Source: Kiritimatiellia bacterium
GTDB taxonomy: Bacteria > Verrucomicrobiota > Kiritimatiellia > RFP12 > UBA1067
Assembly (NCBI GenBank): GCA_017525225.1
Contig: JAFXTB010000178.1
Location: 9,660 to 73,659, forward strand
Length of the DNA stretch: 64,000 nt
Direction: 5' to 3'
The position numbers and the translations under genes are program-made. Below are positions 6,189-31,705 of this stretch, in pieces (within the stretch, counting starts at the first letter, position 1; each line of letters begins with the position of its first letter). Under the pieces are notes generated by a model. It worked only from the letters and a program-made list of their open reading frames with translations. It did not search any database and was not told the DNA's origin.

Positions 6189-7957
6189 TGAGGGTGCACG
6201 CCGGCGCGATACTGGCCCTGCTGGCCCTCTTCACCCTCGGTACCGCCGTGCTGGCGGCATCGCTATACCATGTGCAGGTGGACGACGTCGCGGATGCCCG
6301 CAAGAGGTTCAGGAACCAGGCGACGCGCCGCATAAGCATCCCAGGCCTGCGTGGACGCATCCTCGACCGCAACGGGGGCGTGCTGGCGGATTCCAGGCCA
6401 AGCCACGACATCGCCATCAGGCTAGAATGCTTCCAGCGCTCGGGCGGATGGTCCAACACCGTGGCCGCGGCCGACACCGAGATCGACCGCCTCGCCGCCG
6501 TGCTGGGCCTGCAGCGCACCGTAGCCCGCGAACGCATCGCCCGCCATCTGCGCGATTCCAGCGCGCTGCCCCTTACCGTCTGGCGCGACATAGACGACGC
6601 CACGCTCGCGCGCTTCAGCGAACGGGCGGCGGACTTCCCCGGATTCATCGGCACACTGCGCGCGGAGAGGATATACCCGCACGGCACGTTCGCCGCGCAT
6701 GTGCTGGGCTACACGGGCCGCGGCCGCCCGGATACCGACATGGGCGACACGGTGGTGCACTACTACGAGGAACTGGAGGTCAAGGGGCGCAGCGGGGTGG
6801 AAGGCTACTACGACAGCTTCCTTTCCGGGGCGCCCGGCGAAAAGATCATACGCGTGGACGCGCGCGGTTTCAGGCAGGATGACGGCAAGGTGGAGCGCGA
6901 GTCCGCGCGCGGCCTGGATCTGCGCCTCACGATCGACCCCGCGATCCAGCGGACGCTCGAGGGCGTGCTGGCTGGCGTCTCCGGCGCGGGCGTCGTCCTC
7001 GACCCGCGCGACGGCGCCGTGCTCGCCCTCGCATCGACGCCCGTCTTCAACCCCGACGAATGGCGCCAGCGCTACCGTGAATACCTCGACGACCCGGCAA
7101 GGCCGCTTTTCAACCGCGCGGTGAGCGGACTGTATCCGCCAGGCTCTATCTTCAAGCCGATAACCGCGATGGCGGGCATACTGCGGGCAAAGGTGGACGA
7201 TTCCTTCGACTGGACGCCCGAGGACAAGTTCGACTGTCCCGGCGTGTTCGTGCTGGGCGACATGCGCCTGCACTGCTGGGACCGCTACGGGCATGGTCCC
7301 CTTCCGCTCCGCACCGCGATATCGCGGTCGTGCAACGCCTACTTCTGCAATCTCGGCCAGATGCTCGGCACTAACTCCCTCTTCGGCACGGCGCAGGCCT
7401 TCGGCCTAGGCGCGCGCACCGGCATAGGCCTCAACGGCGAGGCCGCGGGCGCCATCTACGGCACCCCATGGTACGCAGGCCACACGTGCCAGACGTCCAT
7501 CGGCCAGGGCATGCTGCAGGTTACGCCGCTACAGATGGCGGTGGTCTGCGCCGCCTTCGCCAACGGCGGACGCATCTTCACGCCGTACCTGCACCTACGC
7601 GAAGAGGCTGGTCAGCCAGAACCGGTGCGCCGCATAGGCCGGCCGGAGGACTTCGCCGTCGTCCGTGAAGGCATGCGCGACGTGGTGGAGACCGGCACTG
7701 GGCGGCGTATCCGCACACGCGAAGGGGAGAACCGCGTGAAGTACAACATTAAGGTACCGTGCGCTGGCAAAACAGGCACCGCCGAGCGCGGACACGGACG
7801 CAAGGACACGTGGATCATCGCCTTCGCGCCATTCGACGAACCTACCATCGCAATGGCCATTGTGGTGGAGAACGGGGAGTCGGGCGGCAAGACGACAGCC
7901 CCTCTCGCGCACATGGTGTTGGCATCCATCTTCGGCGAGGAGGAGGTGTCGAGATGA
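6188..7957 (+). CDS. mrdA: Penicillin-binding protein 2 (peptidoglycan D,D-transpeptidase MrdA)
   Basis: N-terminal TM anchor and dimerisation domain. Transpeptidase motifs SIFKP (SxxK), SRSCN (SxN) and KTGTA (KTG) are present. Confidence 0.9.
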   Translation: MRVHAGAILALLALFTLGTAVLAASLYHVQVDDVADARKRFRNQATRRISIPGLRGRILDRNGGVLADSRPSHDIAIRLECFQRSGGWSNTVAAADTEIDRLAAVLGLQRTVARERIARHLRDSSALPLTVWRDIDDATLARFSERAADFPGFIGTLRAERIYPHGTFAAHVLGYTGRGRPDTDMGDTVVHYYEELEVKGRSGVEGYYDSFLSGAPGEKIIRVDARGFRQDDGKVERESARGLDLRLTIDPAIQRTLEGVLAGVSGAGVVLDPRDGAVLALASTPVFNPDEWRQRYREYLDDPARPLFNRAVSGLYPPGSIFKPITAMAGILRAKVDDSFDWTPEDKFDCPGVFVLGDMRLHCWDRYGHGPLPLRTAISRSCNAYFCNLGQMLGTNSLFGTAQAFGLGARTGIGLNGEAAGAIYGTPWYAGHTCQTSIGQGMLQVTPLQMAVVCAAFANGGRIFTPYLHLREEAGQPEPVRRIGRPEDFAVVREGMRDVVETGTGRRIRTREGENRVKYNIKVPCAGKTGTAERGHGRKDTWIIAFAPFDEPTIAMAIVVENGESGGKTTAPLAHMVLASIFGEEEVSR

Positions 7958-21813: not shown

Positions 21814-23403
21814 TCACCTCAATTCTTCCTTTGACTCTATCGCCTTCGCCACGGCAATGTGGAACCCCGACCTGTCGAGTTCCCTGAAAAAAGTTTCTCG
21901 TCCAGGTGATTTCCGGGTGGGACGTATCAACTGTCCATTCTTGCGCCTCGCCTCCATAAGCGGCACTGCGCGCCAAAGCAACATCGCCTCGCGGATGCGC
22001 GCCATCGCCGCTTCGCCGCGCTGCGTGTTCGGCAACACCAGCGACGTGCCTTTGCCATCCGAGAGCGCCGAGGCTATCTGCGTGCATCCCCAGCAGTCGC
22101 CGAGTGAAATGTCGCCAACGCGTTCAATCCCGGCGTACCTGCACGTGTAGCAGCATTCACGACTCATGACCCCCTTCAGGAAAGCATAATACCAGGCAGA
22201 AGCACCCGCCGGCACGGCCACAGTACCCTCCTCCGTGTAGATCACCGCCGGCGTCGCCCAACCGAACGGTCGCTTGTCTCGGAAATTTACGCCCGTCAGC
22301 TTTCGGCCGGCGGCATACTCCTTCAGGAAAACGTTCCACGCGGTCGCCGGATTAGCGCCGTGGCACACTATGTCCGCGGTCAGGAGATTCTCGTAGTCCC
22401 TCCCCAGGAAGGAGTACAGCCCCGCAATCTGGCATGGACATCCGGTGAAGAGGACCGGCATCCCGGCGTCGAGATCTTTCTTCGCGTCGCGGTACGCGAA
22501 CGCTATTTCGCTTTGCAGGTATTTACTGCCCCGTATGCGGGAAAGGCCAGCCTCGTCCGTAGCGCGAACGAACACGACACGGCTCCAACGCCCATCTGCC
22601 CACGTGGCGCCGTAGACCGAGCCGCCCTGCGCAAACACATCGCGCGCCAAGAGCGAGACCATGCCGCCGGACGAGCTGACGGCGCGCGTGGCGTCGTCCG
22701 CCATGGCCGCATAGGCCCGAGGCACTGGATGGAGCGGCGGCGGATTGACGCATGGGCACGCCTTAAGGCATAAGCCGCAATTGATACATCCATCCTTAAC
22801 TTTCGGGAAGAGGAACCCCTCTGGCGAAGGTTCCATCGCTAGAGCATCCTTCGGGCATTTGTTCGCACACGCTCCGCATCCGGTGCATCGGTCTGGATTC
22901 ACTATCTTCACCGACTTGTCGGCGCCGTCCGGCGGAGCGAGCGTGGCAGGGGGAGTCGGAGGCAGTGCCACGGGCTTCCGCCTGCGCAGTCTGGCTGCGA
23001 CCCTGCTCTTCAGCTTCTTCAGGAGAACTCGCGCCTTCCGCAGGGCACGCCGCCACAACGGCGGGCGTGGCGGCGGCGGATGGGGCCGCGAGACGAAAGC
23101 CTCGAGGAATTCCGGCTCGAGCGTCCTCCCGGAGTCCAGATAAAACACCAGATCCCCAGACGCGTTGAACTTCCCAACGCGGCACATCGCTTCCCTCGTG
23201 CAGCGGCCGAGCCGCAGGATCTTGACTCGCGGATCGCGAGCTGCGTACTCCAAGCAGACGGCGGCGGTATCGTCGGTCGAGCCACCATCGACGCATAACA
23301 CCTCGAAGTCGCGCAACGTCTGACGCCGCAACGAGTCCAGGCACTCGCGCACCTGCCCTCCACAATTTCTCATGGCAACTATCACCGAAACCCTGACCGG
23401 CAT
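21814..23403 (-). CDS. Fusion protein: truncated GT2 N-terminal half + Pro-rich linker + 2x[4Fe-4S] ferredoxin + coenzyme F420 hydrogenase/dehydrogenase beta-subunit (FrhB/FdhB) C-terminal-like domain
   Basis: Residues 1-105 VSVIVAMRN...VLCVDGGSTDDT...YLDSG form a GT2 A-half only. Then a PHPPPPRPPLW...PPTPPATLAPP linker. Then CTGCGACANKCP and CINCGLCLKACPC ferredoxin motifs. Then CHGANP...CYTCRY...DISLGDCWG, typical of FrhB_FdhB_C. Confidence 0.6.
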   Translation of the reverse strand: MPVRVSVIVAMRNCGGQVRECLDSLRRQTLRDFEVLCVDGGSTDDTAAVCLEYAARDPRVKILRLGRCTREAMCRVGKFNASGDLVFYLDSGRTLEPEFLEAFVSRPHPPPPRPPLWRRALRKARVLLKKLKSRVAARLRRRKPVALPPTPPATLAPPDGADKSVKIVNPDRCTGCGACANKCPKDALAMEPSPEGFLFPKVKDGCINCGLCLKACPCVNPPPLHPVPRAYAAMADDATRAVSSSGGMVSLLARDVFAQGGSVYGATWADGRWSRVVFVRATDEAGLSRIRGSKYLQSEIAFAYRDAKKDLDAGMPVLFTGCPCQIAGLYSFLGRDYENLLTADIVCHGANPATAWNVFLKEYAAGRKLTGVNFRDKRPFGWATPAVIYTEEGTVAVPAGASAWYYAFLKGVMSRECCYTCRYAGIERVGDISLGDCWGCTQIASALSDGKGTSLVLPNTQRGEAAMARIREAMLLWRAVPLMEARRKNGQLIRPTRKSPGRETFFRELDRSGFHIAVAKAIESKEELR

Positions 23404-23425: not shown

Positions 23426-24169
23426 TCATGCCTTGTGGAGAAACGCCTGGTACCTCTCGCACACTCCGGCCACGTCGGAGGTGAACTCCATCTGCTTACC
23501 ATGGTTCAGCCACAATATCTTGTTACACAGCTTCTGCACCTGAACAAGCGAGTGGGAAACCAGTATCGTCGCTACGCCGCTGTGTATGATTTCAAGGAGT
23601 TTCTCCTCGCTCTTCTTGCGGAACTCGACGTCACCCACCGAGAGCACCTCGTCCAGAATAAGAATGTCCGGCCGCACCATGGACGCCACCGAAAACGCCA
23701 AGCGGGCTCTCATCCCCGACGAAAGCTGTCGGAATGGACGGCCCTCAAATTCGCGCAGCCCCGAGAAGTCGATTATCTTATCGTATGCGTCATTCATGAA
23801 CTTCCGCGTATAGCCAAGCATTGCCCCGCGCAGATATGCGTTCTCTTTGACCGTCAAGTCCTTGTCGAATCCAGAGGTCAACTCCAACAGCGCCGCAATC
23901 CTTCCATGCACACGTACCGATCCCTCCACCGGCTCCAAGATACCCGAGACCGCCTTGAGCAGCGTGGACTTCCCTGCCCCATTGGCGCCAATAATTCCGA
24001 GCATGTCACCCCTGTTCAATGCGAACGTGATGCCGCGATCTGCCCAGAACTCCTTCGCGCGATATGTACCTGTCAACTTTCGGATGACGAACTCCTTAAG
24101 GCCAATGCCCTTGAAATCCCCTACCATGTAGCGGATTCCGACACCCTTGAGTTCTACGAGCGTATTCAT
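23426..24169 (-). CDS. Polysaccharide-export ABC transporter ATP-binding protein (Wzt/KpsT/TagH family)
   Basis: Walker A GANGAGKST, signature LSSGMRARL, Walker B ILILDEVLSVGD. Adjacent to an ABC-2 permease. Confidence 0.85.
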   Translation of the reverse strand: MNTLVELKGVGIRYMVGDFKGIGLKEFVIRKLTGTYRAKEFWADRGITFALNRGDMLGIIGANGAGKSTLLKAVSGILEPVEGSVRVHGRIAALLELTSGFDKDLTVKENAYLRGAMLGYTRKFMNDAYDKIIDFSGLREFEGRPFRQLSSGMRARLAFSVASMVRPDILILDEVLSVGDVEFRKKSEEKLLEIIHSGVATILVSHSLVQVQKLCNKILWLNHGKQMEFTSDVAGVCERYQAFLHKA

Positions 24170-24172
24170 TTC

Positions 24173-24994
24173 TTAGACGTAATATAGGAATTTGGTATTG
24201 AACTTCTTGTACATAACACTTCCGACAAAGAGGAAAAACAGCGCCCACCCCGCAAGGATGGCATGGTGTCCCAAAGATGGAAATGCTCCGTCAATTGTGA
24301 CCTTGCGGAAGTATGCAATAAACATGTAGATCGGATTGCACATATACACTCTCTTCCAGCTCTCGGGAAATTTCTCTATGGAATACATCACCGCAGAGCC
24401 ATAGAAGAGAAGCCGGGTGAAGACACTCCAAAGGTAGGCCATGTCGCGAAAAAACACGTATAGTGCCGAAAGGACTAGTCCCAACCCAAGATTGAAAAGC
24501 ATAAGAACTACTATCGGATACAAAAGGAGAAGGAAATGCCATCCGAACCGGATTCCGTCAATCGCGCAGAAGCCAAAGAAGACAGCTAGGATGATCAGGA
24601 AGTTCAAAGTCGTTTGCGCCGTTTTCGCGAAAAGGAAAAGGTACTTGGGCACGTTGACCTTGGTGAATATGCTGGCATTCTCCATCAACGACACCATCCC
24701 CCCGCCCACTGCCTCGTTAAAGTACAGGAAGACCACTTGCCCGCAGAAGAGGTAGATGGTATAGTGGGGAATGGACTTGCCGAAGAATTGTCCAAAAACG
24801 AGTTTGAGCACAAGCAGCAAGAGTAGCGGCGAAAGCACGCTCCATCCCATGCCCAGAACCGTACGCTTGTATTTCTTCTTGAAATCGCGCTTGACCAGTT
24901 CCTCGAACAGGAAACGATGCGCCAAAAACACCCTGACCGCGCGGCGGACAGGTGTCTCATTCAACGGAAGGACTTGTCTCCCAAATACTTTCAT
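24173..24994 (-). CDS. Polysaccharide-export ABC-2 permease (Wzm/KpsM/TagG family)
   Basis: 273 aa with six TM helices. ABC-2 family pattern (VKRDFKKKYKRTVLGMGWSVLSPLL). Lower GC (about 48-50%). Confidence 0.75.
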   Translation of the reverse strand: MKVFGRQVLPLNETPVRRAVRVFLAHRFLFEELVKRDFKKKYKRTVLGMGWSVLSPLLLLLVLKLVFGQFFGKSIPHYTIYLFCGQVVFLYFNEAVGGGMVSLMENASIFTKVNVPKYLFLFAKTAQTTLNFLIILAVFFGFCAIDGIRFGWHFLLLLYPIVVLMLFNLGLGLVLSALYVFFRDMAYLWSVFTRLLFYGSAVMYSIEKFPESWKRVYMCNPIYMFIAYFRKVTIDGAFPSLGHHAILAGWALFFLFVGSVMYKKFNTKFLYYV

Positions 24995-25189
24995 TCTACA
25001 TCCAACAACTATTCCCTCAGCGCTTACTAGTATACACCATCCTTGAGGGTATAGTCAAGCCTGTGGCGTCCGCCGTACCCATTCAGAACAGGACATCGCG
25101 GATGTCGATCACCGCGTTGAAGCCCCCCTCCGCCTCGACAATGGGCGCAAGGTGCCCGCTGCAGACGAGCGCCGTCTTCACGACCTTCC

Positions 25190-25262
25190 CCCTTCCCAAG
25201 TGGGATGCGTACGCGCCTGACCTTCTCGACGTTGTAAACAGGAATTATGACGGAGACTTTCG
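25190..25262 (-). pseudogene. Degenerate stub of a GT2 glycosyltransferase gene (only the first ~16 codons recognisable)
   Basis: Minus-strand translation MSKVSVIIPVYNVEKV is the canonical GT2 N-terminus. After that the frame runs into GC-rich non-GT sequence (RRVRIPLGKGEGREDG...) and stops. No continuation was found in other frames. Confidence 0.45.
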
Positions 25263-25271
25263 ACATGGATG

Positions 25272-26111
25272 TCACACCCCGAAATTCGTGAACTTGATCT
25301 GTCGAACAAGAGCCTTGAAATAATCCCGACTCCATATCTTGAGTTCGGAGATATTCTCGATGAACGGCTCCACGTCTTCGCGCGCGGAATTGAAGTCGAT
25401 CGAGTCAATGCGCGCATCAAACGCGGCGACGACGGCCTCCGGGGTGCTTAGATCCACACCTGGCCCGCTTTCCTTCCCACGTTCCACGAGATGCGTCAAG
25501 TCCAGTTCGGCACCTCGCGAGACATACCAGGCCATGTCATACCAGTCACGGCCCTTCACACGGTTCTTCCACTTCCGGAACAACGCCGCGCTTGCCTTGC
25601 CCGCATAAAGACCGGGAAGGTCGTAGATTCTCACCCAGCACGACGACGGACGGACCAGCAGCTTCATCTCCGTATTGAACCTCGGAGGAGGATCAATATC
25701 CACCTCCAATTTCACCTTGGGGCGCTTCTCCGTCGTGAATCCGATGTCATACACGTCGGACGATTCCTTGAGGAATGCGCTCTCGATTGAATTCGGGCGC
25801 CCCTTTCGCTTCGACTTGATCTCAACTTCCCTGCCGGCAAGCCGGAACTCGTCCTTTACCGCTTCAAAGTAGTCCTCAAATGCAAACGATGGATCCGGGG
25901 CTAGAAGCGAAAAATACATATCCTCGGAGAACCTCTCCAATCCATGAAAAAGATGGAGGCATGTTCCGCCATAGAAAGCGGCCTTGGAGAAGAATCCTCC
26001 GCGGGCCAATCCCGCCAACGCAACCTCCTGCATCACCTCGTAGACGGCATTTTCCTTCTCGTTCACGGACTTGACCTTGTACGCCTCAACCATTTCATCG
26101 AACAATGTCAC
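25272..26111 (-). CDS. Nucleotidyltransferase AbiEii/AbiGii-family toxin-like protein
   Basis: 279 aa. N-terminal region (YEVMQEVALAGLARGGFFSKAAFYGGTCLHLFHGLERFSEDMYF) fits the AbiEii/DUF1814 nucleotidyltransferase fold pattern (GGT...D-x-D-like). ATGA overlap with the upstream small gene. AT-richer than flanks. Confidence 0.65.
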   Translation of the reverse strand: MTLFDEMVEAYKVKSVNEKENAVYEVMQEVALAGLARGGFFSKAAFYGGTCLHLFHGLERFSEDMYFSLLAPDPSFAFEDYFEAVKDEFRLAGREVEIKSKRKGRPNSIESAFLKESSDVYDIGFTTEKRPKVKLEVDIDPPPRFNTEMKLLVRPSSCWVRIYDLPGLYAGKASAALFRKWKNRVKGRDWYDMAWYVSRGAELDLTHLVERGKESGPGVDLSTPEAVVAAFDARIDSIDFNSAREDVEPFIENISELKIWSRDYFKALVRQIKFTNFGV

Positions 26112-26578
26112 GTGAATATCCTTTCCAACGCCTTGAACAGGCCGTACTTGCGTCCTGAAGCCGCATAGGCGGAGAAAACGCCTATGTCGGGATTTTCAAA
26201 TGCATCAAAATCAAATCGCACATCATTCTCCAGATACATGCGCAGCGAACGCGGCGACGAGATGCGAAGCCGAGACCGTGAATCGATAAAGTCGCACAAT
26301 GCCTTCTCCGGTCCCGCGACCATCGCTCCATCAACGCTTCTGACGCCGATGGCAAAGGTCGCCACAGGCACTGTACGGTATACAAAGCGTCCAACAGGCG
26401 TGACGAACCGCTTTCCCCGTGCTGTCACCGCCGAAATCGTTTCCACTACGCGGTCTGGTATCAGACCATATTCCGCCAACATCGTCTCGAAAGAAACATA
26501 TGAGACGGACCGTAAAGCAGATTGGCGACCGTTCAGGCGCGGCCCATGTGTCGAACCCTTTTCAGGGACTGTCCCCAA
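26108..26578 (-). CDS. Putative cognate antitoxin/autoregulator of the AbiEii-like gene (AbiEi-like or DUF6088-like; short form)
   Basis: Positional partner overlapping the toxin start by 4 nt. 124-156 aa depending on start: TTG 26578, or ATG 26482 (MLAEYGLIPDRVVETISAV...). The reading frame opens only at 26623, so no longer N-terminal wHTH domain is possible here. Homology is not verified. Confidence 0.4.
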   Translation of the reverse strand: MGTVPEKGSTHGPRLNGRQSALRSVSYVSFETMLAEYGLIPDRVVETISAVTARGKRFVTPVGRFVYRTVPVATFAIGVRSVDGAMVAGPEKALCDFIDSRSRLRISSPRSLRMYLENDVRFDFDAFENPDIGVFSAYAASGRKYGLFKALERIFT

Positions 26579-26588
26579 GTTATTCCAG

Positions 26589-26663
26589 TTTAGTTGACCC
26601 GTAAGTCCGTATTCTGCGCCACTTTAGGGTCAACTAAATCCTATTTTGCAATTTAGTTGACCC
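26589..26663 (-). promoter_or_regulatory. Triple 12-mer operator-like array TTTAGTTGACCC (26589-26600, direct), GGGTCAACTAAA (26627-26638, inverted; embedded in palindrome TTTAGGGTCAACTAAA) and TTTAGTTGACCC (26652-26663)
   Basis: Exact 12/12 matches read directly from the sequence, 10-85 nt upstream of the antitoxin-like gene start on the minus strand. Confidence 0.5.
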
Positions 26664-26776
26664 ATAACCACAAGGATATGCTGCATGGCGATCTGATCTG
26701 TAGGAACCGTCAATCAAGGGGCAGCCGCCTTTCGCCGCTCAGATCATTGAGCCAATCAACCACCCGGTTTATGATG

Positions 26777-29700
26777 TTATTGGATGAATAAAGCGGCGCC
26801 GTTAGGAGCGATCACCCCTTCCTGAATATCGTACCAATCATCGTCTTCTTCATCGTAATAGCTTCCAGACGGCGTGTATAGGAACTGCAAATCAACCGCC
26901 ATCCCGCCAACAACGAAAGTCGCCAGTGCGCATTTGTCATGGACAAAGCGAACCACGGTCGTCGCACTCACCTTTTTCGAGCCAATCTTGCCCGCCAGTG
27001 TCGCAATACCAGTATCGGAAACTTTAATTGACACAGGGAACGATGTCATGCCATAGACACAATATCTGCAGAAAAGACTGTAATCGCCATTTTCCCTAGC
27101 TACCGCCAATTTCTGCGTCCCCAGCTTGCTCAGCAATTTGGCGATGTGTCCGGCACTTGCATTCAGGTATTTCTTCTTGCTGTTCTTGCCGTATGGATTC
27201 CGCACGGCGTACGCCCAGACGATGTCGGTGCACAACCCAGACGACGGCTCTGGCTGGTAAGAGCCTTCAAGAGCCGCCTCGGTGGCGTCCCACGCCAAGG
27301 ATGGTTTGATCGATATCTTCAGCTTCTTCTTCCAGCTGACAAGAGTGGCACTGTAGACACCATCGTCGTCTATGGAAGACCACTTGCTAGCGGCAAATGT
27401 AGTTGATCCAAGCTTGGCCGAAATCTTGCCGTCGCTCTTGACAACCACCTTGAAGACATGCACTTTATCCGTTATGGCAGTGTAGCGGCGTCCAACATCC
27501 TGATTGTCTCCCTCTTCCGAATCGTCATAACCGCAATCCTCACAGTCATCGTCGTCATAATCGTCATCATCGTCATCGTCAGCATCCCATGGCGTAAATC
27601 CATAATACCCTGATGTATACCCGTAACTATGTGCGGCAATCCATGAACTGTCCTTCGAGGCGAAACCGTTAAACGTTCCGACCACCGCCGAAGGCAGGGC
27701 AACGGCCTTGATCTTGATCTTGAAGGTCCTCGACCATCCCCATTTGTTCGTAAGTTTTATCGCCACGGTGCTCGTACCCGCCTTGCGCGGCACCCCGCTG
27801 ATCTTTCCGCTCTTGTAGGCAAGTCCGCTCGGAAGACCGCTCACCTTGACCGTCGCGGACGAACCGGACACGCCGGACATGCCGGGCGTCGCGGTGAGCG
27901 CGAAAGTCTGCTGTACGCCCACGCGCACGGTCACCGTTGCGCCGGACGACGTCACTGTCGTGGCGTTTTCCGCCGACGTGCCGTTTACGCGCGCCGACAC
28001 GGACACGGTGAATCCGGGATTCTTCGCCACGATCTTGATCGTCTTCTTGGCTGTCCCCTTGGAGTTCTTCGCCGTGATCGTCACCTTGGACGTCCCGGGC
28101 TTCTTCGCCTTGCCGGTTATCTTCCCGCCCGAATACTTGAGCCCGGACGGAAGCCCCTTCACCGTTACGGTCGTCTTCTTGATGGTCGACAGCACTGTGA
28201 TCGGAATGCTGCAGGACTGCCCCGGAATCACTGTATAGGAACTATCGCAGTAGATGGCCGGCTTGGGCTTGGGGGCAGGCAGCGTGCCCGCTAGCTCGGC
28301 AGCCACGCGAAAGCCTAGGTTCTCGTAGGTGTCGGACGGGTATACGGTATCCGAGCCGTCCCAGTACCAATATTTCTTGTCATAGCTCTCGCTCCATGAC
28401 GCACCGCACATCATTTTCGATTCGTCTGCGCTGGAATTCGGCCCGACAGGATCCGTGACCGCCTTCGTGACGTTCCATTCCCAATCCAGAGTCCATTCCG
28501 ACACATTTCCATACATGTCGTAGATTCCCCAGGCGTTCGGCGCGTAGGATCCGACCTTCGTATGTTCGCCGTACCCGCCCTTTCCGTCATTCGCGTTTTC
28601 AGGGATTCGTCCGCACGACGTCACGTTAACGGTGCTCCCGCCGCCTGCGCGGAAGGCATACTCGCCCTGCGCCAGCGTGGGCAGGTCCACCGAAACGCCC
28701 GACCGGGCGCGGAGACGTCCGATGAACGAATTCGCATCGACAGTCCTCACCGCCGGCCAGTTGTATGTCCGCACATTGCCGCGAATGGATTCCCACGAAA
28801 CGCGCTCCACTGGGCGCGTATCTCCCCTGTAGCGCGACGGATTCTGCCCCGTCACCAGTTCGTACTGCTTCTGCGTCACCTCGAATACGCCGATGTAGTA
28901 CGGCTTCGTGATCGAGACCTTGTACGAGCCGATGACGGTCGGCACCTCGTTACCATAATCATCCATATCCCAATCTACATCATCCATCATGAAACTGCCC
29001 GCCTCCACCTTCTTCAGCACCAGTTTGGTCGTCTTGTATTCATCCGTCCAGCCGCCGGCGGGAATGGCATCAAGATATGTAACCGGGTATTTCGACGCGC
29101 TCGCGCCTGTCGAGAGATCGATCACGCAATACGTACCAGATGTGGGAGTTGTCGGTGTCGTGCTGGCGTTCCAGTGGGCGTAGTACGTCACGTTACCGGT
29201 AACCTTCGTGGACGTCGATATCTTCGTACCGCCGCTCGCAGCGGTCCACCACCCGTCAAACGTGTACCCGCTCCGCGTCGGCGTCGGCAGCGTCCCGACC
29301 GCCGAACCGCTGGCGACAGACCGCGTCGTGCCGCCGCATCCCCCGTTCGCGTTGAACGTCACCGTGTAATAATCTCCACTACCAGCCAATGTCACGCCGC
29401 TCGCCGGATCGCCAACAAGCTTGAATGCCGAGGAATCAAAGGATGCATACGAACCTTCTGCAACAGAGAACTCCAATCCGGCTTCGCCCAATCCATTCAC
29501 ATGAAGCAATCTAATACTGTAAATCCCAGCAGACGGAAAGCTTACGGTCATCAAATCTGTACTCATTGCTCCACTGGAAGAAGAATGGAATTCACGAGAA
29601 ACTCCAGTGCCACTAATTGTTGCAGAAAATACATCGTCACATCCACAGGCAAAAGTCCATTCTCCGGCCCGTGGAACATATATTGATGTTGTCGCATCCA

Positions 29701-31705
29701 CAACGAAATAATTACTGCCCCCTCCTGGGAAATCCACCATGTCACTTGAGAATTTTATATCTCTGTAATGTCCCAAGCCATAGGCAAATGCAATCTTATC
29801 ATAAGTTTTCGTCACTGGTTCCCCATTCCAGACGGAATGATCGCCAATTGCTTGTAACGCATAAGAATCTGTTTCCTGTAAGCTTTCACCAAGAATATTT
29901 TCCGTGAGATTGTACTGTGTCACCATCCAAAGCCCATTCGCTGGCGGCGTCGTCCCCGCCGTGCCGTCGTACAACGCCTTAACCTCCGCTGCCGACAACG
30001 CACGGTTGTAGATGCGGAGGTCATCTATACTTCCATCAAAACACCCATATTGTGTCTTACCGAGGGAATAATCACCATTTGAGTCAACACTAAGCATAAT
30101 GCATTTGGTTCGCGAACTACTGAGGCCTTCCCTCACAAACACCCCGTCAAGATAGAGTTTGGGCGCACCATTCTCGGAAACGGAAACGACCGCATGATGC
30201 CAACTAGCATCGATTGCCGTCTCATACTTCAAGACTGCCGCCTTGTAACCGCCTCCATGCTCATAAATGTTCAATCCATTTGACCCAGCCTTCAACCCTA
30301 CACCAACATATCCTGAAAGATAAATGTTCGGCTGAGCCGGATAAACCAAAAAGTTCTTGCCATTATAATCAGTCCCACTCGTCGTTTCGCCTTTCAGTAC
30401 AGTAGTTTCGAATGTCTTAAACCAGCATGAAAAAGTAAAAGTGTCCTTGACTAACAGCAGCTCTGATGTCCCGAGCGCAATGTTATTGTCCAACTGATAT
30501 GCGCCGTTTTCCAGCCCATCATGTCCCACTACACAAGTGAGAGTGCCCTCCACCACCAAATGATACCCGTTCCCGCTCGCATCGTTCGCGTTGCCATCAA
30601 ACGGATAGTACGCAACAAGGCCATCGGTCAATGATCTGCCAGCAGGTGCCGCCCCATACTCATAGCATCCGATATCGACCGTACCGTTGGCGATACGGGC
30701 GTTGCCCGCCAAGTCCTTGTCGCTCGTCACATACGAATTGTCGCCCGCATCGATACACGGCGAACCCGCCGTAAGCCGATAGTCACCGTTCGCCGCATCC
30801 ACGAAGTTGGGAGTTGCACTGATATTGCCAGCCCCAACATTCAATGTCGCAACATTCTTTTTTGTCACGCCACCTTGTACACAGCTATATGAGACTGCGG
30901 CCATCGTACCAGAGCTGTACACACTTGAGAATGCATCTATCTGGCTACCTCCATTGTTCCAGACGATGCAGCCCTTCACTTTAACAGTCGCGCCATTGGC
31001 CAATCCAACACCGCCTTGATACCCAAAGAAATCCGTGGAGTCATTGCCATAGATGGTACAGTTGACCAAAGTCATCTCGCCGTCATCACTCTCGACAAAG
31101 ATCGCTCCACCGCAAGCCCACGCAAAGTTATCGTAAAACAGACAGTTTTCCACAAGTACACTTCCTGAAGCACTTGAAATACCACCTCCAAAAGTGCCTG
31201 AATCTGTACGTGGCGTGCCATGCCCGTTTCCATGTATTATGCAGTTGCGGATTGTGGCGCTTGTACGACAGCGCACGCCGCCGCCATAATAGTCATACCC
31301 GTATGAGGAAGGATTCGGCTCTCCAGTGCCGCCCGTAATCTCAAAACCGTCAATGGTCGCCCCGGTCGCATTCTCCATTATCCTTACAGCAGCATATCCT
31401 GACAGTCCATGTACAGTTGTGTTTTTTGCCCCTGAAGCCGACTTGACTTCAACCCTCCTTGAGATTTCAATCCTTTCATTATACGTCCCTGGTGCAACAA
31501 GAATCGTGTCGCCTGCCGACGAAGCATCAATCGCCGCCTGGATCGTCGCCTTGGCGGAAGATTGGCTCGTGCCGGAGTTGTAGTTCGACCCCGTCGAGCC
31601 GTTTACATACCACGTAGTCGCAGATACCATCATCGGCATCAGCAGCACAGCCACGGTCAACTTTTTCAGCATCAACTGGAATACTTTTGAAAATTCTGTT
31701 TTCAT
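26777..31705 (-). CDS. Giant secreted multi-domain surface protein (1,642 aa): signal peptide; pectin-lyase-like beta-helix; LamG/ConA-like; Listeria-Bacteroides repeat; FGE-sulfatase (SUMF1-like) domain; two Ig-like (dystroglycan-type) domains; poly-Asp linker; C-terminal domain
   Basis: Parallel beta-helix repeats NCIIHGN / NCLFYDN / NCTIYGN. LamG-like LVAYYPFDGNANDASGNGYHL. List-Bact repeat SGYTFDGWWTAASGGTKIST. FGE-like VDLPTLAQGEYAFRAGG and GIYDMYGNVSEWTLDW. Ig-like GLPSGLKYSGGKITGKAKKPGTSKVTITAKN, twice. Linker DADDDDDDDYDDDDCEDCGYDD. Confidence 0.8.
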   Translation of the reverse strand: MKTEFSKVFQLMLKKLTVAVLLMPMMVSATTWYVNGSTGSNYNSGTSQSSAKATIQAAIDASSAGDTILVAPGTYNERIEISRRVEVKSASGAKNTTVHGLSGYAAVRIMENATGATIDGFEITGGTGEPNPSSYGYDYYGGGVRCRTSATIRNCIIHGNGHGTPRTDSGTFGGGISSASGSVLVENCLFYDNFAWACGGAIFVESDDGEMTLVNCTIYGNDSTDFFGYQGGVGLANGATVKVKGCIVWNNGGSQIDAFSSVYSSGTMAAVSYSCVQGGVTKKNVATLNVGAGNISATPNFVDAANGDYRLTAGSPCIDAGDNSYVTSDKDLAGNARIANGTVDIGCYEYGAAPAGRSLTDGLVAYYPFDGNANDASGNGYHLVVEGTLTCVVGHDGLENGAYQLDNNIALGTSELLLVKDTFTFSCWFKTFETTVLKGETTSGTDYNGKNFLVYPAQPNIYLSGYVGVGLKAGSNGLNIYEHGGGYKAAVLKYETAIDASWHHAVVSVSENGAPKLYLDGVFVREGLSSSRTKCIMLSVDSNGDYSLGKTQYGCFDGSIDDLRIYNRALSAAEVKALYDGTAGTTPPANGLWMVTQYNLTENILGESLQETDSYALQAIGDHSVWNGEPVTKTYDKIAFAYGLGHYRDIKFSSDMVDFPGGGSNYFVVDATTSIYVPRAGEWTFACGCDDVFSATISGTGVSREFHSSSSGAMSTDLMTVSFPSAGIYSIRLLHVNGLGEAGLEFSVAEGSYASFDSSAFKLVGDPASGVTLAGSGDYYTVTFNANGGCGGTTRSVASGSAVGTLPTPTRSGYTFDGWWTAASGGTKISTSTKVTGNVTYYAHWNASTTPTTPTSGTYCVIDLSTGASASKYPVTYLDAIPAGGWTDEYKTTKLVLKKVEAGSFMMDDVDWDMDDYGNEVPTVIGSYKVSITKPYYIGVFEVTQKQYELVTGQNPSRYRGDTRPVERVSWESIRGNVRTYNWPAVRTVDANSFIGRLRARSGVSVDLPTLAQGEYAFRAGGGSTVNVTSCGRIPENANDGKGGYGEHTKVGSYAPNAWGIYDMYGNVSEWTLDWEWNVTKAVTDPVGPNSSADESKMMCGASWSESYDKKYWYWDGSDTVYPSDTYENLGFRVAAELAGTLPAPKPKPAIYCDSSYTVIPGQSCSIPITVLSTIKKTTVTVKGLPSGLKYSGGKITGKAKKPGTSKVTITAKNSKGTAKKTIKIVAKNPGFTVSVSARVNGTSAENATTVTSSGATVTVRVGVQQTFALTATPGMSGVSGSSATVKVSGLPSGLAYKSGKISGVPRKAGTSTVAIKLTNKWGWSRTFKIKIKAVALPSAVVGTFNGFASKDSSWIAAHSYGYTSGYYGFTPWDADDDDDDDYDDDDCEDCGYDDSEEGDNQDVGRRYTAITDKVHVFKVVVKSDGKISAKLGSTTFAASKWSSIDDDGVYSATLVSWKKKLKISIKPSLAWDATEAALEGSYQPEPSSGLCTDIVWAYAVRNPYGKNSKKKYLNASAGHIAKLLSKLGTQKLAVARENGDYSLFCRYCVYGMTSFPVSIKVSDTGIATLAGKIGSKKVSATTVVRFVHDKCALATFVVGGMAVDLQFLYTPSGSYYDEEDDDWYDIQEGVIAPNGAALFIQ

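Follow-up and report, generated by a model that had tools for sequence, protein, structure and literature searches.

An abiEi-abiEii-GT2 cassette reduced to a probably inactive relic in a glycan locus of rumen Kiritimatiellia

The subject of this analysis is a two-gene unit of the AbiE toxin-antitoxin (TA) type, located at positions 25272-26663 of a 64-kb stretch of DNA from a Kiritimatiellia bacterium (contig JAFXTB010000178.1; the whole stretch is referred to as the window, and all positions are counted along it). The region is probably an ordinary, inactive 1.31-kb relic (26534-25222) of a canonical abiEi-abiEii-GT2 cassette, of the kind carried in glycan loci of rumen Kiritimatiellia. The initial annotation had described an inserted two-gene module, and it had missed both a substitution of the second catalytic aspartate of the toxin (D66Y) and a 15-codon stump of the GT2 glycosyltransferase gene; in view of these two lesions, the unit is instead regarded as a relic fragment. 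Both ends of the fragment are recombination joints. The parts of the unit are given below, with the related loci L001, L002 and L005, which carry intact cassettes, as the reference.

25272-26111, minus strand: abiEii; 279 amino acids (aa), GTG start, full length, motifs I, III and IV intact
25914-25916, minus strand: codon 66 of abiEii, TAT (Tyr), the second Asp of motif II R60-x-S62-x-D64-x-D66; GAT in L005 and L001
26108-26578, minus strand: upstream open reading frame (ORF); 156 aa from TTG 26578, 124 aa from ATG 26482
26108-26500, minus strand: C-terminal domain (CTD) of abiEi, in frame, equal to Y78-T207 plus the stop; matched by the PADLOC AbiEi profile
26501-26502, minus strand: frameshifting 2-bp insertion CA, absent from L001 and L002, separating codons S77 and Y78
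26503-26534, minus strand: remnant of abiEi codons 67-77 (…VANLLYGPS), out of frame; from DNA alignment with L005 and L001
26535-26588, minus strand: junction filler with no similarity to intact abiE loci; includes TTG 26578, from which the 156-aa ORF starts

The two ORFs share a 4-nt overlap (GTGA, 26108-26111), as had been noted from the sequence, and the frame of the upstream one is closed by an in-frame TAA (26624-26626), which makes an extension past 26623 impossible and leaves the partner at the 124-156 aa first proposed. Its start differs among three gene callers, giving products of 112 (NCBI), 124 and 156 aa, of which the 124-aa form is an exact match to the database protein P0001. Among the proteins of an NCBI metagenome-assembled genome (MAG; MBR4654921.1/MBR4654922.1), the toxin is already labelled as a member of the AbiEii/AbiGii family and the small ORF as hypothetical.

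The small ORF was matched by the PADLOC AbiEi profile PDLC02230 (E 6.6e-33) at profile positions 55-186 of 192 only, in line with the reported absence of a winged helix-turn-helix (wHTH) domain at its N-terminus, and a Pfam search of the same ORF gave no match, AbiEi domains included. Nearly all of its best 120 homologues are 204-216 aa long, and the few shorter ones lie on contigs of <1.8 kb and are presumably cut by the contig ends. L005 encodes a canonical AbiEi of 207 aa (MHELQKDWLKRLGEAPFG…), which is matched at PADLOC positions 3-186 and has a sub-threshold AbiEi_4 wHTH at residues 32-55, and with which the remnant shares 97.7% identity over residues 77-207; P0041, a more distant member of the family, passes the AbiEi_4 gathering score. 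Homology to L001, L002 and L005 begins abruptly at abiEi codon 67 (position 26534), and residues 1-66 were not found anywhere in the 64-kb window by tblastn with full-length AbiEi. Codons 67-77 can still be followed at the DNA level, and the comparison with L005 revealed a net gap of 2 bases across this block, matching the 2-bp insertion. The wHTH is thus missing because of a breakpoint at codon 67, left by recombination or deletion, combined with the frameshifting insertion, and the first approximately 25 residues of the 156-aa form are junk encoded by non-homologous DNA. In the CTD, the invariant columns from L85 to D174 are all kept, and so is the GLIPDRV region, which is aligned to the D85-E86-I87 loop of Streptococcus agalactiae AbiEi; the family profile matches the S. 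agalactiae AbiEi structures PDB 6y8q and 9hlo.

The suggestion that the partner belongs to a minimal or distinct antitoxin family, such as one resembling DUF6088, has to be withdrawn. The DUF6088 profile (PF19570) gave nothing at E<=1 with either the 156-aa or the 124-aa form, and its sole match was of chance level (E 0.3) and fell in the wHTH of P0041. Sequence comparison demonstrably identifies the short partner as a canonical AbiEi that was cut back, and not as an antitoxin family of its own. The segment VVDWLNDLSGERRLPLD, which follows the stop of the upstream gene and resembles 'QRDWLKRLG…', was considered as a remnant of the AbiEi N-terminus and rejected as a chance resemblance, its DNA identity being at background level only and the tblastn search being blank for residues 1-66.

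The downstream gene had been called AbiEii-like, and the profile searches strongly support this assignment. It scored 93.3 bits against PF08843 (cut-off 22.5, E 2.9e-26, residues 31-253) and was matched by PADLOC PDLC02293 with an E-value of 5.7e-100 over positions 2-269 of 270. With AbiEii motifs defined as in PMC3985639, motif I (hG[GS]) is present as Y47-G48-G49, with G48 and G49 invariant in an alignment of 26 sequences, and motifs III (K172, R179) and IV (R188-D189-W-Y-D192) are intact, all in invariant columns. Motif II is defective. R60, S62 and D64 are kept, and a single GAT to TAT change has placed Tyr at the second Asp (R60-F-S62-E-D64-M-Y66). Column 66 is Asp in 25/25 aligned relatives, the window alone having Tyr; D-x-D was found in 115 of the 124 toxin sequences scanned, and this locus itself accounts for four of the nine exceptions.

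The R-x-[ST]-x-D-x-D spacing places Y66 on D69 of S. agalactiae AbiEii (R63/T65/D67/D69), and DUF1814 proteins in the PDB align at this site with RFSEDLDF and RFSTDLDF. In the S. agalactiae protein, each of the substitutions D67A, D69A, D67E and D69E abolishes toxicity, and the D67A/D69A double mutant has lost GTP binding (PMC3985639). By analogy, the toxin of the window would be catalytically dead and non-toxic. Changes in the DxD were also observed in five other toxins among the approximately 120 of the AbiEii subfamily, four with Gly or Ala at the second Asp (P0136, P0147, P0222 and P0235) and one with Asn at the first (P0130); for P0235 and P0147 the contigs end inside abiEi. From these sequences, natural inactivation of the toxin at the DxD site appears to recur in the subfamily.

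The flanks of the fragment and the adjoining promoter-like site are as follows.

26627-26663, no strand: perfect 37-bp palindrome GGGTCAACTAAAT-N11-ATTTAGTTGACCC, in the foreign DNA that replaces the 5' end of abiEi
26589-26600, minus strand: third half-site GGGTCAACTAAA(C), 26 nt beyond the palindrome
25222-25266, minus strand: 15-codon 5' stump of the GT2 gene (MSKVSVIIPVYNVEK); position 25222, in a GAGAAG microhomology, is the limit of homology to L005 and L001
25083-25221, minus strand: 3' stump of a PF01637-type ATPase gene (…VVKTALVCSGHLAPIVEAEGGFNAVIDIRDVLF, then the stop); tblastn E 2.4e-4 against the window
25029-25058, minus strand: sigma-70-like promoter TTGACT-18-TATACT upstream of the ABC-2 permease gene; next transcription unit, outside the module

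On the abiEi side, the segment 26535-26776 is unrelated to intact abiE loci and contains the palindrome and the third half-site, so that three half-sites are present in this region of the window (0.06 expected by chance). An exact-arm search of GTDB genomes found the palindrome in four rumen Kiritimatiellia/Verrucomicrobia MAGs and in one unrelated enterobacterium. It lies directly upstream of a PF01637-type ATPase gene in L018, L019 and L020, and in L021 it stands beside a 5'-deleted ATPase gene, with the same palindrome-plus-half-site layout as in the window. On the GT2 side, the ATPase stump is homologous to the C-terminus of the 485-aa PF01637-type ATPase in L020, L018 and L021, and at the DNA level it is 86-90% identical to short stumps located upstream of abiEi in L005 and L022. 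The stump of L022 is not joined to GT2 and reads …GCCGAGAAGGTCAGGCG…, and therefore the GT2/ATPase joint of the window falls in the GAGAAG microhomology. The distance from the palindrome start to the ATPase stop is 1581 nt in the window and 1561 nt in the intact L020. With palindromes on one side and the ATPase 3' end on the other, the abiE fragment sits in a destroyed ATPase unit, and its junctions bear the marks of rearrangement, mediated by microhomology, at a palindrome/ATPase unit that recurs.

A possible pathway would be the integration of a circularised abiE cassette at the 3' end of the ATPase gene, after which a deletion would have taken out the body of the ATPase gene together with the abiEi 5' end; we infer only that such a sequence of events would fit the joints. 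Replacement of the interior of the ATPase gene would be another route. With the toxin dead, the loss of the autoregulating full-length antitoxin would have been tolerated. The remaining ORFs would then no longer form an autoregulated TA, abortive infection (Abi) or addiction module, and would at most be transcribed by read-through from the upstream gene for a 1642-aa protein.

Several further observations concern the palindrome, the ATPase gene and the region upstream of abiEi. The palindrome, which is clade-specific, has 13-bp arms (GGGTCAACTAAAT) and an 11-nt spacer, is often extended to GACTTTA…TAAAGTC, and occurs as single copies, as pairs in tandem separated by 26 nt or together with an additional half-site, just upstream of the gene for an approximately 485-aa PF01637 ATPase with a helix-turn-helix domain (window 26589-26663; L018 2268-2304; L019 715-814; L020 2993-3029; L021 6953-7028). 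Its appearance is that of an operator or of a cassette border prone to recombination. Two other roles were rejected, that of AbiEi operator boxes, as the palindromes are lacking in intact abiE loci and recur upstream of the ATPase gene elsewhere, and that of a terminator, as there is no T-run, no terminator call and no Rfam family match. ATPase 3' stumps are found beside abiE or glycan genes in several genomes (window 25083-25221; L005 132-207; L022 779-921; L021 6641-6925), which suggests that the ATPase gene marks a hotspot of illegitimate recombination at glycan-locus borders. The native region upstream of abiEi, where its own promoter and AbiEi-box inverted repeats would be sought, is absent from the window. 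In intact loci, a TGGTAAAAT(ATGCRCAGATAAA) element is located approximately 35-50 nt upstream of the abiEi start (L001 at about 925-950, L005 at about 245-270, L009 at about 7337-7351); this element, also absent from the window, is a candidate extended -10 or operator of the AbiE subfamily.

Comparison with sister loci revealed both the state from which the window copy departed and a state of further decay. L005, the contig of P0243 (which belongs to the 90%-identity cluster of the toxin), shares 92.4% DNA identity with window 26534..25222; its AbiEii carries RFSEDMDF, with both catalytic Asp residues, and its GT2 glycosyltransferase is complete. The state seen in the window (both joints, the 2-bp insertion and Y66) is also present in L006, L007, L008 and the NCBI MAG with MBR4654921/2, that is, in at least five assemblies; L006 is 99.97% identical over 3.4 kb and comes from 3 samples, and L008 has an additional I235S change at an otherwise invariant column. 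An independent and further decayed copy was identified in L022 (920-1806, ERZ28653651 scaffold_23013). Here, abiEi is fused to an ATPase stump near codon 89, and abiEii, in which D66 is intact, has lost 357 nt in frame (119 codons) with 8-nt microhomology and has a replaced C-terminus. The L022 relic is followed by Glyco_transf_61, IspD and LicD genes.

The placement of the unit in a glycan locus, proposed at the outset, holds for the window, where genes for an ABC-2 permease and ATPase, GT2, Glft2_N and pyruvyl transferase are found downstream of the module, and equally for its closest relatives. L001-L003, L005, L009 and L022 are all in glycan loci, and the intact copies are co-directional with them. 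The gene order in L001-L003 is KpsS-abiE-GT2-pyruvyl transferase-Glyphos_transf, and in L009 abiE lies between UDP-glucose dehydrogenase and Stealth/Glyphos_transf genes. As a separate observation, L007 and L008 are 1548-nt contigs from two independent metagenome assemblies with the same ends (window 26601..25054), which lie at the third palindrome half-site and inside the promoter-like site (25029-25058) upstream of wzm. These shared ends suggest strain-level variation or repeats at the borders.

A number of results weigh against an inactive relic. The dN/dS values between the window and L005 are low (0.106 for the toxin, 0.072 for the antitoxin CTD). When changes were polarised with L001, the nonsynonymous to synonymous counts for the toxin were 11:17 on the window branch and 6:11 on the L005 branch, and those for the CTD were 0:2 on the window branch, so that neither dN/dS nor the branch-polarised counts show a signature of relaxed selection in either gene. 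Continued function of one or both ORFs is therefore possible. In S. agalactiae, the CTD of AbiEi is by itself enough for antitoxicity, and few AbiEi contacts involve the wHTH (PMC3985639; bioRxiv 10.64898/2026.01.19.700257); the remnant retains the region aligned to the critical AbiEi loop. The loss of toxicity attributed to D66Y is a prediction from a distant homologue. In favour of the relic, a scan for sigma-70-like promoters and terminators between the gene for the 1642-aa protein and the remnant found none; its value is limited, as the promoter consensus was of the E. coli type, which may not hold in this lineage, and as it flagged nothing in the intact L005 either. The low dN/dS can be read in either of two ways, namely that the lesions are recent or that some constraint persists; under the relic reading, inactivation would be evolutionarily recent, since dN/dS is still low.

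In a second reading, the CTD-only antitoxin beside the dead toxin may still be expressed and have been kept by selection as a stand-alone, non-autoregulated anti-addiction or immunity gene directed against AbiEii of related glycan cassettes or mobile elements. This would explain the undamaged CTD with its critical loop region, its dN/dS of 0.072 and the absence of nonsynonymous changes on its window branch, and close relatives of this abiE cassette do circulate in the clade's glycan loci. If true, the remnant would be a natural example of the in vitro result that the CTD is sufficient. We nevertheless consider it unlikely. A start and ribosome-binding site are not identifiable, as illustrated by the three starts of the three callers; the native upstream region is lost, with no promoter-like site found by the E. 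coli-type scan; and published truncated AbiEi proteins were unstable (PMC3985639). A recent event explains the low dN/dS equally well, only 2 CTD substitutions map to the window branch, and L022 shows that the CTD itself can be eroded.

A still functional TA pair, in which Y66 AbiEii remains toxic and is neutralised, without autoregulation, by the CTD-only protein as a minimal antitoxin, is quite unlikely. Such a pair would agree with the experimental neutralisation by the CTD, with the full-length toxin and its intact motifs I, III and IV, with the low dN/dS in both genes and with the preserved 4-nt overlap, which would allow translational coupling. However, even the conservative replacement of Asp by Glu at the equivalent position abolishes toxicity, Asp occupies this column in all of the aligned relatives, neutralisation is, in the current model, an antitoxin-induced auto-phosphorylation that itself requires the active site, and the short partner demonstrably arose by truncation and does not form a separate family.

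Assignment of the partner to a separate family of small antitoxins (DUF6088-like or MenA1-like) whose evolution involved no wHTH is very improbable and is refuted here: wHTH-less antitoxins of DUF1814 toxins do exist (MenA1) and no Pfam AbiEi domain was found in the window protein, but DUF6088 is not matched, the remnant shares 98% identity with a canonical AbiEi over its residues 77-207, codons 67-77 survive out of frame and PADLOC AbiEi profiles match by their C-terminal two thirds only. It is just as hard to believe that a chimeric metagenome assembly or a consensus error produced the truncation, D66Y and the unusual flanks, for although the source is a MAG and L007 and L008, both short contigs, have identical break points (26601 and 25054), suggesting branching of the assembly graph at repeats, the same junction sequence is present in the window, L006, the NCBI MAG and other samples, and L007 and L008 each combine, on one contig, the left breakpoint with the 2-bp insertion, with Y66 and with the GT2/ATPase joint.

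The relic can be compared with several known systems. AbiE of S. agalactiae and Lactococcus lactis was published as a type IV TA and abortive infection system (Dy et al. 2014, PMC3985639) and has recently been proposed to be of type VII (Arrowsmith et al. 2026 preprint, 10.64898/2026.01.19.700257). The window pair resembles AbiE in its bicistronic organisation with a 4-nt overlap, in its DUF1814/PF08843 toxin of the Pol-beta-type nucleotidyltransferase kind with motifs I, III and IV, in its homologous antitoxin CTD and in having intact sister loci with an approximately 207-aa two-domain antitoxin. It differs from AbiE in that the wHTH and the native upstream region are missing, a frameshifting 2-bp insertion is present and Tyr replaces the second catalytic Asp. 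The DUF1814 fold is shared with the MenA/MenT systems of Mycobacterium tuberculosis (MenT3/Rv1045, MenT4), in which the active-site motif of MenT reads RFSxDxDF (PDB 6y56 alignment). MenA1 is a short antitoxin without a wHTH (bioRxiv 10.64898/2026.01.19.700257), whereas the window partner is the C-terminal part of a COG5340-type AbiEi, made by truncation. Like degenerate TA loci, the window pair combines a point mutation in the toxin active site, a truncated antitoxin, a recombination-prone variable region and several decay stages among its sisters. Degenerate or orphan chromosomal TA remnants with inactivated toxins are an established category, and this is the best-fitting one for the window pair, from which nothing notable differs.

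As to the surroundings, the lower GC content ascribed to the module was found (0.543, compared with 0.618 for the window), but it is not specific to it. The low GC is shared by the whole 8.3-kb tract 23426-31705, which comprises wzt, wzm, the module and the giant gene and has a GC of 0.531 (wzm alone, 0.483). The giant gene (26777-31705, minus strand; GC 0.534, low like the abiE relic and wzm/wzt) encodes the secreted-looking 1642-aa protein, with beta-helix, LamG, Flg_new and FGE-sulfatase domains and an acidic D/E-rich run. On the other side, 21814-23403 (minus strand) encodes a 529-aa fusion of a GT2-like N-terminus, a proline-rich linker, 4Fe-4S ferredoxin motifs and an FrhB/FdhB C-terminal domain; this gene adjoins the Glft2_N and pyruvyl-transferase genes, and its architecture is unusual in a glycan locus. 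Searches of a phage collection gave a single distant match and those of plasmids an identity of <=50%, and thus no evidence of phage or plasmid origin. Distant members of the AbiE subfamily (approximately 68% identity) in L011 (7378-8834) and L012-L014 (7390-8840) are tight co-directional insertions in housekeeping arrays and not in defence islands. One distant copy lies just upstream of a gene with a DNA_topoisoIV domain (ParC/GyrA-like), with a GyrB-like gene approximately 5 kb further upstream, and another just upstream of an rsgA-like GTPase gene, approximately 3 kb downstream of an rpsP-rplS-trmD array.

The PADLOC AbiE models match the pair, and as this is homology only, a role in phage defence is predicted at most. 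Defence or TA annotation based on hidden Markov models would score this locus as AbiE despite the missing catalytic Asp and DNA-binding domain. Truncation should be ruled out before a new antitoxin family is named beside AbiEii, and in the present case it can be traced base by base. Taken in order, L005 (intact), the window copy and L022 (more decayed) represent a three-stage series of TA decay in the exchangeable glycan loci of rumen Kiritimatiellia.

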